Assembly: GCF_048403405.1 (NCBI RefSeq)
Contig: NZ_CP183129.1
Length of the DNA: 64,000 nt
Reading direction: 5' to 3' (one strand)
Origin: Escherichia coli
Lineage (GTDB): Bacteria; Pseudomonadota; Gammaproteobacteria; Enterobacterales; Enterobacteriaceae
The position numbers were made by a program, and so were the translations under genes. Shown here in pieces: positions 45,960 through 53,760 of the stretch. The notes under the pieces are model-generated. The model did not search any database, was not told the DNA's origin, and saw only the letters and a list, made by a program, of their open reading frames with translations. The stretch's first letter is position 1; every line of letters begins with the position of its first letter.

Positions 45960-46015
45960 CGATGCCTGACACGTCTTATCAGGCTACAACCGTGTCGCAT
46001 CCGACAAGGCATCAG
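45960..46015. repeat. REP-like palindromic element between narU and narZ
   Basis: Contains gtcttatcaggctac, resembling the REP consensus. Confidence 0.5.
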
Positions 46016-46048
46016 ATCCCAATTCATTCCTGGAGCAGGAGTTATGTC

Positions 46049-49000
46049 ATGAGTAAACTTTTGGATCGCTTTCGCTACTTCAAACAAAAGGGCGATACCT
46101 TTGCCGATGGTCACGGACAGGTGATGCATAGCAACCGCGACTGGGAGGACAGCTATCGCCAGCGTTGGCAGTTCGACAAAATCGTGCGTTCCACCCACGG
46201 TGTTAACTGTACAGGCTCCTGTAGCTGGAAAATCTACGTTAAAAATGGTCTGGTGACCTGGGAAATCCAACAGACCGACTACCCGCGCACTCGCCCTGAC
46301 CTGCCCAATCATGAACCTCGCGGCTGCCCGCGCGGCGCAAGTTACTCCTGGTATCTCTACAGCGCTAACCGCCTGAAATACCCTCTCATTCGTAAACGAC
46401 TGATTGAACTGTGGCGCGAAGCCCTCAAGCAACACAGCGATCCGGTACTGGCGTGGGCATCGATTATGAACGATCCGCAAAAGTGCCTGAGCTACAAACA
46501 AGTACGTGGACGCGGCGGCTTTATCCGCTCCAACTGGCAGGAGCTAAACCAGTTGATTGCCGCCGCTAACGTCTGGACCATCAAAACCTACGGCCCGGAT
46601 CGCGTTGCCGGTTTCTCGCCGATCCCGGCGATGTCGATGGTTTCTTACGCCGCCGGAACACGTTATCTTTCACTATTAGGTGGCACCTGTTTAAGCTTCT
46701 ACGACTGGTATTGCGACCTGCCGCCCGCCTCGCCGATGACCTGGGGCGAGCAAACCGACGTACCGGAATCTGCCGACTGGTATAACTCCAGCTACATCAT
46801 CGCCTGGGGGTCTAACGTACCGCAGACACGTACGCCGGACGCCCACTTCTTTACCGAAGTACGCTACAAAGGCACTAAAACCATCGCCATTACCCCTGAC
46901 TACTCTGAAGTGGCCAAATTGTGCGACCAGTGGCTGGCACCAAAACAAGGCACTGATAGCGCCCTGGCGATGGCAATGGGCCATGTGATTTTAAAAGAGT
47001 TTCATCTCGATAATCCCAGCGACTACTTTATCAACTACTGCCGCCGCTACAGCGACATGCCGATGCTGGTAATGCTGGAACCTCGCGACGATGGCAGCTA
47101 CGTACCCGGGCGCATGATCCGCGCGTCTGACCTGGTAGATGGACTGGGCGAAAGCAACAATCCGCAGTGGAAAACCGTGGCGGTTAATACCGCAGGTGAA
47201 CTGGTGGTGCCGAACGGTTCGATTGGTTTTCGCTGGGGAGAAAAAGGCAAATGGAATCTGGAATCCATTGCCGCCGGTACGGAAACCGAATTGTCGTTAA
47301 CTCTGCTCGGTCAACATGATGCCGTTGCAGGCGCGGCCTTCCCCTACTTTGGCGGCATTGAAAATCCGCATTTTCGCAGCGTAAAAAACAATCCTGTCCT
47401 GGTGCGTCAATTACCCGTTAAAAACCTGACATTAGCCGATGGCAGCACCTGTCCGGTGGTCAGCGTTTATGATTTGGTACTGGCGAATTACGGCCTCGAT
47501 CGCGGGCTGGAAGATGAAAACAGCGCGAAAGATTACGCTGAAATCAAACCGTACACCCCAGCCTGGGGTGAGCAAATTACCGGCGTGCCGCGCCAGTATA
47601 TTGAAACCATCGCCCGTGAATTTGCCGATACCGCCCATAAAACGCATGGGCGCTCGATGATTATCCTCGGTGCTGGCGTCAACCATTGGTATCACATGGA
47701 CATGAACTACCGTGGGATGATCAACATGCTGATCTTCTGCGGTTGTGTCGGGCAAAGCGGTGGCGGATGGGCACACTATGTCGGTCAGGAAAAACTGCGC
47801 CCGCAAACTGGCTGGTTGCCGCTGGCCTTTGCGCTCGATTGGAACCGACCACCGCGCCAGATGAACAGCACCTCGTTTTTCTACAATCATTCCAGCCAAT
47901 GGCGCTATGAAAAAGTCTCTGCTCAGGAGTTACTTTCACCGCTCGCCGATGCCAGTAAGTACAGCGGTCATCTGATTGATTTCAACGTTCGTGCCGAACG
48001 TATGGGCTGGCTACCTTCTGCGCCGCAGCTGGGGCGTAACCCGCTCGGGATTAAAGCTGAAGCCGACAAGGCCGGATTATCCCCCACAGAATTTACCGCC
48101 CAGGCGCTGAAATCGGGCGATTTACGCATGGCCTGCGAACAACCAGATAGCGGCAGCAATCATCCGCGTAATTTGTTTGTCTGGCGTTCTAACCTGCTTG
48201 GCTCCTCCGGCAAAGGCCACGAGTATATGCAGAAGTATCTGCTGGGAACCGAAAGTGGGATTCAGGGTCAGGAACTCGGTGCCAGCGACGGGATCAAACC
48301 AGAAGAAGTCGAGTGGCAAACTGCGGCGATTGAAGGCAAGCTCGACCTGCTGGTGACGCTCGACTTCCGTATGTCCAGTACCTGCCTGTTCTCCGATATC
48401 GTTCTGCCCACCGCCACCTGGTACGAAAAAGACGATATGAACACCTCGGATATGCATCCGTTTATTCATCCCCTATCTGCGGCGGTCGATCCGGCGTGGG
48501 AATCACGCAGCGACTGGGAAATCTACAAAGGTATTGCCAAAGCCTTTTCGCAAGTGTGCGTGGGCCATCTTGGCAAAGAAACCGACGTGGTATTACAACC
48601 ACTGCTGCATGACTCTCCGGCAGAACTCTCACAGCCGTGTGAAGTGCTCGACTGGCGCAAAGGCGAATGCGATCTGATTCCAGGTAAAACTGCGCCCAAT
48701 ATTGTGGCGGTGGAACGCGACTACCCTGCTACCTATGAACGCTTTACCTCGCTCGGGCCATTGATGGACAAACTTGGCAACGGCGGTAAAGGGATTTCGT
48801 GGAATACCCAGGATGAAATCGATTTCCTCGGCAAACTCAACTACACCAAGCGTGAAGGCCCGGCACAGGGGCGTCCGCTGATTGACACCGCCATTGACGC
48901 ATCAGAAGTGATTCTGGCTCTGGCACCGGAAACCAACGGTCATGTTGCAGTCAAAGCGTGGCAGGCGCTGGGCGAGATCACCGGACGCGAACATACCCAT

Positions 49001-52780: not shown

Positions 52781-53674
52781 ATGAAACCGCAGGTGTACCA
52801 CATCGATGCTTTTACCTCACAACCGTTTCGCGGCAATTCTGCCGGTGTTGTTTTCCCCGCCGATAATCTCAGTGAAGCGCAAATGCAGCTTATCGCCCGC
52901 GAATTAGGTCATTCCGAAACTGCTTTTCTGCTGCACAGCGACGACAGCGATGTGCGCATCCGCTACTTTACGCCAACAGTTGAAGTGCCGATTTGTGGTC
53001 ACGCGACGGTAGCAGCGCATTATGTACGTTCGAAGGTATTAGGTTTGGGAAATTGCACGGTCTGGCAAACATCGCTGGCAGGAAAACACCGCGTGACTAT
53101 AGAAAAGCAAAATGATGATTATCGTATTTCGCTGGAACAAGGTACTCCTGGCTTTGAGCCACCACTGACAGGTGAAACACGAGCGGCAATTATCAACGCG
53201 CTTCATCTCACTGAAGACGATATTCTGCCAGGCTTGCCAATTCAGGTGGCTACCACAGGACACTCAAAAGTGATGATTCCACTGAAGCCGGAAGTGGATA
53301 TCGACGCCCTTTCGCCTGACCTTAATGTGCTGACCGCTATCAGCAAACAGATTGGCTGCAATGGTTTCTTCCCGTTCCAGATCCGCCCTGGCAAAAACGA
53401 AACCGACGGTCGTATGTTCTCGCCTGCCATTGGTATTGTGGAAGATCCGGTGACCGGCAATGCCAATGGCCCGATGGGTGCATGGTTGGTACATCACAAC
53501 GTATTGCCCCACGATGGCAACGTGTTGCATGTTAAAGGCCATCAGGGGCGCGCATTGGGGCGTGACGGCGTGATTGAAGTGACGGTGACAATTCGCAATA
53601 ACCAACCGGAGAAAGTCACCATTTCTGGCACAGCGGTGATTTTGTTTCATGCCGAATGGGCAATTGAACTCTGA
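52781..53674 (+). CDS. yddE: PhzF-family isomerase YddE
   Basis: 297 aa. Confidence 0.88.
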   Translation: MKPQVYHIDAFTSQPFRGNSAGVVFPADNLSEAQMQLIARELGHSETAFLLHSDDSDVRIRYFTPTVEVPICGHATVAAHYVRSKVLGLGNCTVWQTSLAGKHRVTIEKQNDDYRISLEQGTPGFEPPLTGETRAAIINALHLTEDDILPGLPIQVATTGHSKVMIPLKPEVDIDALSPDLNVLTAISKQIGCNGFFPFQIRPGKNETDGRMFSPAIGIVEDPVTGNANGPMGAWLVHHNVLPHDGNVLHVKGHQGRALGRDGVIEVTVTIRNNQPEKVTISGTAVILFHAEWAIEL

Positions 53675-53679
53675 AACCG

Positions 53680-53760
53680 TTGCCTGATGCGCTTCGCTTA
53701 TCAGGTCTACAACCGAGCTAATGTATGCCGGATAAGGCGTTTACGCCGCATCCGGCAACC
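53680..53760. repeat. REP pair (BIME-like) between yddE and nhoA
   Basis: tgcctgatgcgcttcgcttatcaggtctac and gccggataaggcgtttacgccgcatccggca REP-type palindromes. Confidence 0.65.

Follow-up and report, generated by a model that had tools for sequence, protein, structure and literature searches.

Two REP/BIME sites of differing preservation in the narU-narZYWV-yddE / nhoA region of Escherichia coli

Are the palindromes in the two spacers around the narZYWV genes of E. coli members of the REP/BIME family, and does their position on either side of these genes have a meaning? The window that we analysed is the whole stretch of 64,000 nucleotides (64 kb) of E. coli chromosome carrying the narU-narZYWV-yddE / nhoA region. 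A preliminary description had placed typical REP-type palindromes, able to stabilise transcripts or to serve as targets for RAYT or IS insertion, in the narU–narZ spacer (45955-46048, 94 bp) and in the yddE–nhoA spacer (53675-53769, 95 bp), and the coordinates that it gave, 45960 and 53760, agree with the outer limits of both elements. In K-12 the two spacers correspond to the intervals 1,534,870-1,534,964 and 1,542,591-1,542,671. We hold with high confidence that both sites are E. coli REP/BIMEs of the standard families at differing preservation, intact between yddE and nhoA and eroded between narU and narZ, and that they are independent of each other.

As the plain consensus pattern CTTATCMGGCCTAC with 2 mismatches matched the yddE–nhoA units only and was also found in 13 of 100 shuffles, which is barely above chance, a covariance model (R1) was used instead. 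Eighteen independent palindromic units (PUs) of K-12 served for its training, all of them from unrelated loci and none from yddE–nhoA, and the model was run with filters off over all 64 kb of the window. The training set contained y-type and long (36–37-nt, z2-length) PUs only, so that the apex of a short z1 unit is bridged by a local end. R1 found exactly two significant REPs in the 64 kb, both in the yddE–nhoA spacer. Searched with the Rfam gathering thresholds, the window gave no REP match at all, a blank that is uninformative on REP presence, and as the annotation of NC_000913.3 lists no REP features at all, the known yaaX–yaaA BIME included, its silence at yddE–nhoA and narU–narZ is equally uninformative. 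The census across strains covered 5426 complete genomes.

The BIME between yddE and nhoA

The genes yddE and nhoA are convergent, and their stop codons (53674 for yddE and 53770 for nhoA) bound a 95-bp spacer which fully contains two extragenic units. The first is a z1-type PU of 29 nt (53682-53710, + strand), reading ...GCCTGATGCGCTTCGCTTATCAGGTCTAC on the + strand and thus in iREP orientation, which R1 located at 53679-53710(+) with 29.4 bits and E=2.2e-6 in the 64-kb search. On the - strand it consists of GTAG and 25 nt and has the AA/GC bulge (CTGAT-AA-GCG AAG CGC-..-ATCAG, with A8A9 facing G17C18). The second is a y-type PU of 35 nt, GTATGCCGGATAAGGCGTTTACGCCGCATCCGGCA (53723-53757, + strand), in REP orientation on the + strand and with GTAG mutated to GTAT; R1 located it at 53723-53759(-) with 53.5 bits and E=1.9e-13 in the same search, and its mid-stem bulge AA/GC can be read directly from the sequence (GGAT-AA-GGCG...CGCC-GC-ATCC). 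Between the CTAC end of z1 and the GTAT end of y lies the 12-nt linker AACCGAGCTAAT (53711-53722).

Both units agree in length, bulge and position of GTAG with the published descriptions of y and z1 (PMC8266576, PMC3333891, PMC2817692), where 29 nt is given for z1 (PMC8266576). The y unit is identical to the published consensus GTAGGacgGATAAGgCGttCACGcCGCATCcGGCA (PMC2817692) at 32 of 35 positions, and GTAG-to-GTAT is its only change at a conserved (upper-case) position; near-identical copies are found in K-12, those flanking rayT among them. The sequences are also highly repeated: a 451-bp query over the spacer matched 23 places in the median genome (megablast), and a 34-nt z1 query had at least 40 places in 4669 records, with a median of at least 40 across 5425 of the 5426 genomes. 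The yddE–nhoA element is an ordinary two-unit REP/BIME, a textbook case and not a novel one. Two other readings were rejected. The short z unit did not arise from a long z PU by a deletion at this locus, since z1 units normally measure 29 nt (PMC8266576) and its shape is the short form of the z1 PU in the gudD–barA BIME-1, and the hairpin at 52711-52739 between narV and yddE, with only 5.2 bits, is a different, non-REP hairpin and not a third REP.

BIME-1 is defined by inverse z1 and y units present in single copy at a locus (PMC3333891), and this is the arrangement found here, with the z1 unit on the + strand, CTAC and GTAT facing each other and a single BIME at the locus. The long, conserved L linker of BIME-1, which often carries an IHF site, is absent, the linker of the window being 12 nt long. 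Alignment to the 118-bp allele of strain Z1002 (L007) and to an 83-bp allele (L008) showed that these 12 nt correspond to both termini of an L-type linker from which the central 23 nt, an AT-rich and IHF-site-like core, are gone. The core of the long-linker allele, TAATTTATTGAAT, is common to the L linker of gudD–barA, where a z1 unit of this form is likewise accompanied by an L linker. The 35-nt L-like linker is a minority allele (only ~100 genomes), and the BIME with the identical 12-nt linker is present in the outgroups E. albertii and E. whittamii. From its topology, its unit types and the minority long-linker allele, the window allele is best described as a derivative of BIME-1 in which the L linker is truncated. 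With E. coli BIME-1 (z1 – L linker – y; RIB/RIP if IHF-bound) it shares the 29-nt z1 and 35-nt y units, their CTAC/GTAG ends directed towards the linker and the location in a convergent-gene spacer, but it differs in the 12-nt linker without the IHF-like core (as in most E. coli, E. albertii and E. whittamii), in GTAT for GTAG and in a C-to-T change at the z1 foot (CAGGTCTAC). We propose that an intact two-unit BIME of BIME-1 topology had its L linker cut to 12 nt, and the loss of the IHF-site-like core would be due to this reduction.

Looking for GTAG in the y unit failed, as the window and K-12 both have GTAT, and GTAG is intact in the y unit of E. albertii, E. whittamii and two further alleles (L005, L007). 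GTAT is a derived point mutation that bears on recognition by RAYT and not on ancestry. Binding and cleavage by TnpAREP need both GTAG and the bulge (PMC8266576, PMC3333891), and the E. coli RAYT enzyme is reported to accept no base change within GTAG (PMC8266576), which makes the proposed role as a RAYT target doubtful for this unit: because of its GTAT it is probably not a substrate. The z1 unit, having GTAG on the - strand and the bulge with the first stem pair mismatched, is possibly active with RAYT, as predicted from these features. The rayT gene is present in 3569 of the 5426 genomes.

As a target for IS insertion the yddE–nhoA element lives up to its preliminary description. The apex of the y unit, GTTT (53739-53742), is the natural insertion point of IS1397 and its target-site duplication, with junctions reading ...GGCGTTT / TGAACTG...CAGTTCA / GTTTACGCC in two alleles (L003 and L005) and an IS length of 1432 bp; in a third (L006) the duplicated bases are TT. 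Insertions in the y loop with duplication of GTTT or TT thus occur in three allelic backgrounds, and IS1397 sits at this loop in 164 of the 5426 complete genomes, 152 times in one orientation and 12 times in the other. The y-unit loop of yddE–nhoA is a recurrent natural integration site of IS1397. That this element inserts in PU loops has been described (Bachellier 1997; Clément 1999; Wilde 2001, 2003, as cited in PMC1525189), and the present insertions share with the known ones the 1432-bp IS3-family element at a PU apex, the short duplication and the restriction to an intact PU, since of the two spacers only the one with intact PUs is invaded. There is no difference in kind; the yddE–nhoA y unit appears to be a recurrent site, and the searchable literature holds no mention of IS1397 insertion there.

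The remnant between narU and narZ

The palindrome in the 94-bp narU–narZ spacer has the arms GCCTGA/TCAGGC (45964-45969/45979-45984) and the outer arms GATGCCT/AGGCATC (45961-45967/46007-46013). The first 27 nt (45961-45987, + strand), GAT GCCTGA-CACGTCTTATCAGG-CTAC, are a z-type PU remnant that lacks ~11 nt of the left arm and apex, one C ahead of CTAC and the bulge. It is followed on the + strand by the BIME linker AACCGTGTCGC (45988-45998), which is fused to the y PU stub ATCCGACA (45999-46006), the last 8 nt of a deleted y PU. R1 gave the remnant 10.7 bits, corresponding to E=0.67 window-wide (rank 7, below matches inside coding sequence) and to E=0.00099 in a search confined to the 94-bp spacer. 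On its own sequence the palindrome is indistinguishable from chance window-wide. It is also a single-copy sequence (median 1 place per genome, megablast) and not a repeated one, and its sole likeness to a repeat is a 13-nt identity to z PU right arms, its right arm CGTCTTATCAGGC being identical to z PUs of K-12 BIMEs.

The orthologous spacers hold what is missing. A full z PU, GCCTGGTAAGACGCTCGCTCGTCTTATCAGGCCTAC, is present at the same place in E. whittamii (32.2 bits, E=3.9e-7), and a full y PU between the same flanks in E. albertii (E=2.8e-10) and E. coli E69 (E=5.6e-10) and also in the divergent E. coli SCPM-O-B-8794; at the position of the stub these three have GTAGGTCGGATAAGGC...CGCCGCATCCGACA with 43, 41.9 and 25 bits, respectively. 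The window sequence aligns to these full-PU orthologues as a deletion derivative, which suggests a 31-nt deletion flanked by two imperfect direct repeats, GTCGCCTCC and GCCGCATCC. A further 13 nt are lost in the K-12 allele, where only GCCTGATG followed by TAC is left. The spacer thus measures 81 bp in K-12, against 106 bp in E. whittamii and 126 bp in E. albertii. The REP ancestry of the remnant follows from the full PUs in orthologous spacers, which are its one support, and judged from these alignments the narU–narZ spacer is a decayed BIME, eroded and not a typical REP. The claim of REP palindromes at both spacers therefore stands in full for yddE–nhoA, where the formal model scan found both units of a regular y + z1 BIME (E=1.9e-13 and 2.2e-6); for narU–narZ, a deleted z PU with an 8-nt stub at 10.7 bits and E=0.67 window-wide, it holds in part, by orthologue ancestry, and the word typical does not apply. 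Inside narUZYWV, which is an operon (PMC11417348), a z–linker–y BIME would have been present already in the Escherichia ancestor, and in this strain deletions would have removed the greater part of the y unit and roughly one third of the z unit.

The whole remnant is enclosed by an outer stem, GAUCGAUGCCU / AGGCAUCAGAUC (45957-46018, + strand), which starts 2 nt past the narU stop codon. Both of its arms are kept in the alleles of the window, K-12, E. whittamii and E. albertii, a comparison in which no covariation is available; in E69 the right arm carries a single change, and in the divergent allele of SCPM-O-B-8794 one C is gone from the left arm. The minimum free energies of the RNA are -20.4 kcal/mol for the window (z=-2.5), -19.7 for K-12 (z=-3.6) and -31.3 for E. 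whittamii (z=-4.2). In other genera the base spacer is 37-70 bp long without a REP signature, 31 of 60 species having such a bare spacer of <=70 bp, and Escherichia, Citrobacter and Klebsiella have their own units in differing orientations. It is conceivable, though we consider it unlikely, that this spacer is a favoured landing site for REP/BIMEs across Enterobacteriaceae and that the outer stem of the Escherichia remnant was domesticated and tunes the narU : narZYWV ratio. If so, the Escherichia BIME erodes under selection that keeps only the outer closing stem, and the 94-bp, 81-bp and longer alleles would give differing narU : narZYWV ratios.

The conserved outer stem closing this region in the Escherichia alleles, with z from -2.5 to -4.2, together with the single-copy nature of the palindrome and the chance matches in coding sequence that rank above it, would also suit a locus-specific intercistronic RNA structure, namely a processing site, an attenuator or a 3' stabiliser of narU mRNA, which resembles a REP by chance. 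This is very improbable, as E. whittamii, E. albertii and E. coli E69 have full-length PUs between identical flanks, the window sequence aligns as their deletion derivative with a right arm identical to K-12 z PUs, and a structural role of the outer stem is compatible with REP ancestry; the orthologue comparison already refutes it for the most part. As a decayed BIME the remnant is probably no longer a functional REP, being neither a substrate of RAYT nor a target of IS elements, and for insertion the early expectation was not borne out here, the spacer being uninterrupted in 5400 of 5402 matching genomes. A modest hairpin between the two cistrons may nevertheless still form from it. REPs at intercistronic positions in polycistronic operons, for example malE–malF and hisJ–hisQ, have reportedly been described by Higgins in 1982 and 1988 and by Newbury in 1987. 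The narU–narZ remnant shares with these the position between cistrons of one operon, few nt past the upstream stop codon, but its REPs are mostly deleted, leaving a 6-bp inner and an 11-bp outer stem, and as only these short stems remain any stabilisation of the upstream mRNA would be much weaker.

Transcript ends and the meaning of the two sites

Since the yddE–nhoA element lies between convergent genes, the transcripts of both genes would each end in a stable PU hairpin. The z1 hairpin (-12.4 kcal/mol, z=-3.45) has its stem 7 nt from the yddE stop codon, and the y hairpin (-23.6 kcal/mol, z=-5.9) starts 12 nt from the nhoA stop codon on the nhoA transcript strand. Most likely these hairpins would act as barriers to 3'-exonucleases and set the 3' ends and half-lives of the yddE and nhoA mRNAs; the suggested transcript stabilisation by these repeats is plausible. 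As each hairpin is less than 16 nt from a stop codon, translation of the gene upstream of it may be damped as well, in keeping with the 16-nt rule that Liang et al. 2015 are cited for in PMC12306157. Two stable hairpins between convergent genes also resemble a bidirectional intrinsic terminator, for which the REP label would be superfluous. This reading is likewise very improbable, because neither hairpin is followed by a T-run, a terminator scan of the spacer found none, and the sequences have at least 23-40 copies in each genome, match the REP model with E=1e-13 and are targets of the PU-specific IS1397. Partial termination fits within the REP reading and does not compete with it, as BIME-linked transcription attenuation has been published. 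Promoter and terminator scans found no terminator-like sites in either spacer and no promoters in the narU–narZ spacer; the sole promoter-like match by the yddE–nhoA spacer, at 53798–53769 of the minus strand, falls nearly entirely within nhoA and does not exceed the shuffle level.

That the two sites, with REP-type sequences on either side and co-oriented z-type units, delimit a narZYWV(-yddE) cassette that is mobile or prone to recombination is hardly credible, since the left site sits inside the narUZYWV operon (PMC11417348), the narU–narZ adjacency is kept across 60 enterobacterial species, E. albertii has the same synteny and the same 7.63-kb distance between the sites, and the 9.5-kb region is in one place with at least 80% of the query covered in 5390 of 5426 genomes; no precise inversion, deletion or relocation of the inter-site segment with PU junctions was seen. 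The flanking of the narZYWV block thus carries no mechanistic meaning, and the wording itself fits only loosely, as the right-hand element adjoins yddE and not narV. The two sites are independent, and there is no composite element around narZYWV.

The biology of both sites is already known, and the result has little importance beyond annotation; this nhoA/yddE REP locus is mentioned neither in the supplements of PMC12306157 and PMC3333891 nor in the searchable literature. For annotators the yddE–nhoA spacer merits a BIME (y + z1) feature, and its polymorphic IS1397 hot spot can be a marker for strain typing and is a warning for assembly and variant calling. What the narU–narZ spacer contains is a REP fossil with a 13-bp indel polymorphism and not a regulatory site to be over-interpreted, and the pair does not bound a mobile nar cassette. 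Taken as a whole, the locus is a compact and well-resolved case of BIME decay via internal deletions across Escherichia species.

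REP search of the window

As Rfam returned no REP match in the window and the K-12 annotation, looked over as a whole, contains no REP feature, we built our own model. A BLAST comparison of candidate hairpins with 100 kb of unrelated K-12 sequence gave eight BIME loci, the ones on either side of rayT among them. From these, 18 palindromic units (PUs), all outside the yddE–nhoA locus, were aligned and turned into a covariance model (R1) with a 12-bp bulged stem. Searching the entire 64 kb with filters off resulted in two significant matches, both within the yddE–nhoA spacer: a y PU at 53723-53759 (minus strand; 53.5 bits, E=1.9e-13) and a z1 PU at 53679-53710 (plus strand; 29.4 bits, E=2.2e-6). 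The next-best locus is located inside fdnG (E about 0.4). The narU–narZ palindrome (45961-45987) ranks 7th with 10.7 bits and E=0.67, but reaches E=0.00099 when the search is confined to its 94-bp spacer, a fair test since the location had been stated beforehand.

The preliminary description had placed REP palindromes, as typical extragenic repeats, in both spacers. This holds for yddE–nhoA and in part for narU–narZ, where the palindrome exists without a significant window-wide REP match and orthologous spacers reveal a fossil left by deletions; the proposed ends 45960 and 53760 do coincide with the outer palindrome edges. With one BIME and two significant PUs the window is REP-poor, as the published figure of about 600 REPs for the 4.6 Mb of K-12 (PMC3333891) would predict about eight for 64 kb.

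Three other elements were observed in the window. At 60051-60159 (minus strand) an Rfam group-II-D1D4-2 match of 48 bits exceeds the gathering score; neither another intron domain nor a reverse-transcriptase ORF was found nearby, and its neighbours are a pentapeptide-repeat gene, itself located downstream of an RHS core protein, and a fragment of an ISAs1 transposase with a frameshift. The match resembles the 5' part of a group II intron left behind as an orphan. STnc490 (34259-34382, minus strand; 146 bits) adjoins an IS200/IS605-family tnpA (33791-34249, minus strand) and is the IS200 5' leader RNA rather than a separate sRNA gene; the K-12 region compared has no IS at the corresponding place. 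A SECIS_3 element (38395-38453, minus strand; 84 bits) within fdnG is to be expected, given the selenocysteine codon of formate dehydrogenase-N.

The yddE–nhoA BIME as IS1397 target

The 95-bp spacer (53675-53769) separates the convergent genes yddE (52781-53674, plus strand) and nhoA (53770-54615, minus strand; all gene coordinates are transferred annotation). Its element reads TGCCTGATGCGCTTCGCTTATCAGGTCTAC – AACCGAGCTAAT – GTATGCCGGATAAGGCGTTTACGCCGCATCCGGCA. A y PU of 35 nt makes up the second unit; it agrees with the published consensus GTAGGacgGATAAGgCGttCACGcCGCATCcGGCA (PMC2817692) except for GTAG being GTAT. The first comprises, on the minus strand, GTAG and 25 nt including the AA/GC bulge; with 29 nt it can be assigned to z1 by the published lengths (y 35, z1 29 and z2 37 nt; PMC8266576). 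A locus-specific deletion as the reason for this short unit was rejected, as the gudD–barA BIME-1 has the identical short form (GCCTGATGCGCTACGCTTATCAGGCCTAC). Copies of both units abound: by megablast the spacer query matches a median of 23 places in each genome, and the z1 query matches at least 40 in 4669 records.

Like BIME-1 (PMC3333891), the locus carries a single BIME with inverted z1 and y units whose CTAC and GTAG ends face the linker, but instead of the long L motif the window has a 12-nt linker, as do K-12 and the majority of strains. Two strain alleles (L006 and L008; 83-bp spacer) have a linker of 0 nt, and strain Z1002 (L007 512-546) together with about 100 E. coli genomes has 35 nt (118-bp spacer). 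The core of the latter, TAATTTATTGAAT, is common to the L linker of gudD–barA in UMNK88 (L072 383-476), and the 12-nt form equals both its ends joined. E. albertii and E. whittamii likewise have 12 nt, and the 35-nt form is absent from both and from the window; it is either a kept ancestral form or the result of gene conversion from another BIME-1. These outgroups carry the canonical GTAGGCC and CAGGCCTAC; GTATGCC and CAGGTCTAC of the window are derived states.

The suggestion that such palindromes are targets for IS insertion was borne out at the y PU. One genome elsewhere identical to the window carries a 1432-bp IS1397 between yddE and nhoA, and its junctions (...GGCGTTT|TGAACTG...CAGTTCA|GTTTACGCC) place it at the y PU apex with a 4-bp GTTT duplication. 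The same apex is occupied in a second allelic background (L005) and, with TT alone duplicated, in the 83-bp allele L006. Junction-specific queries against 5426 complete genomes identified IS1397 here in 164, 152 in one orientation and 12 in the other. The insertions are clearly multiple and independent and, as natural events, direct evidence that this y PU is a functional IS target; IS1397 is described in PMC1525189 and references therein as inserting specifically into PUs of BIMEs. In contrast, the narU–narZ spacer is unbroken in 5400 of 5402 genomes.

Both units form stable hairpins as RNA. The y hairpin (-23.6 kcal/mol, z=-5.9) starts 12 nt past the nhoA stop codon and the z1 hairpin (-12.4 kcal/mol, z=-3.5) 7 nt past that of yddE; a terminator scan of the spacer found no T-run terminator at either. 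From published REP functions we infer that the BIME would cap both convergent transcripts, and, with both hairpins less than 16 nt from a stop codon, it may also damp translation of both genes, an effect of REPs from Liang et al. 2015 as summarised in PMC12306157. Binding of IHF, a typical trait of BIME-1, is unlikely here, since the window allele lacks the L core. The y unit is also unlikely to be processed by RAYT, given its mutated GTAG: at this tetranucleotide "no mutations were tolerated" by the E. coli enzyme (PMC8266576); rayT is present in 3569 of 5426 genomes.

The narU–narZ remnant

The 94-bp spacer (45955-46048) between narU (44566-45954, plus strand) and narZ (46049-49789) lies within the narUZYWV operon (PMC11417348), which continues with narY (49786-51330), narW (51330-52025) and narV (52022-52702). 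E. coli has two alleles, the 94-bp window type, which accounts for roughly a third of genomes sampled at even intervals, and the 81-bp K-12 type, and their 13-bp difference falls within the palindrome. Escherichia spacers align as deletion derivatives of a single BIME. E. whittamii retains a full z PU (GCCTGGTAAGACGCTCGCTCGTCTTATCAGGCCTAC; 32.2 bits, E=3.9e-7), and a full y PU (GTAGGTCGGATAAGGC...GCATCCGACA) is retained in E. albertii (43 bits), E. coli E69 (41.9 bits) and SCPM-O-B-8794 (25 bits). Left in the window are GCCTGA-CACGTCTTATCAGG-CTAC, the linker AACCGTGTCGC and the final 8 nt of the y unit, whose deletion is presumably bounded by GTCGCCTCC and GCCGCATCC, two imperfect direct repeats. 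In K-12 the z unit is reduced to GCCTGATG|TAC, but a TG lost from the window is still present, so the two alleles are independent deletions. Judged from these alignments, the palindrome is REP-type, yet a fossil.

Species-representative genomes, scanned with the narZ start as a pattern, gave 62 loci, 60 of which have narU directly upstream. Across genera, 31 of these 60 spacers are bare and at most 70 bp long, and 10 of the 29 longer ones have GTAGG/CCTAC and a REP core, with the opposite arrangement in Citrobacter. This indicates lineage-specific acquisitions, by which a short ancestral spacer would have taken in REPs lineage by lineage.

The remnant folds as RNA (-20.4 kcal/mol, z=-2.5) via an outer stem (45957-45967 / 46007-46018) kept in the window, K-12, E. 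whittamii and E. albertii alleles whatever the internal deletions; E69 has one change and SCPM-O-B-8794 a left arm one base short. A further, strong hairpin (52711-52739, plus strand; -19.7 kcal/mol, z=-5.1) starts 8 nt past the narV stop codon without a T-run and is kept in K-12 with a single loop change. Used as control for R1, it scored 5.2 bits and was rejected as REP, having only a GCCGGA/TCCGGCC foot in common with y PUs; it may represent the structure at the 3' end of the narUZYWV transcript.

Relation of the two sites

The 9.5 kb around both sites show 100% identity to several E. coli chromosomes and are found at a single place, with at least 80% of the query covered, in 5390 of 5426 complete genomes. 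Between yddG and narU, the window strain has an ompC-like porin gene (40407-41507, plus strand) and a longer leucine-rich-repeat gene (42997-44250, plus strand) where K-12 has yddL/yddK/yddJ fragments. The left site is intra-operonic and the right one lies beyond yddE. E. albertii has the identical gene order and 7.63-kb spacing. No sign of a cassette bounded by the sites was seen, and the two are independent of one another.

In summary, the earlier interpretation is partly supported. Both sites belong to the most familiar family of bacterial repeats, here in its type organism, so the biology is already known; mildly new are only the census of the IS1397 hot spot and the clarity with which BIME decay between narU and narZ could be reconstructed.
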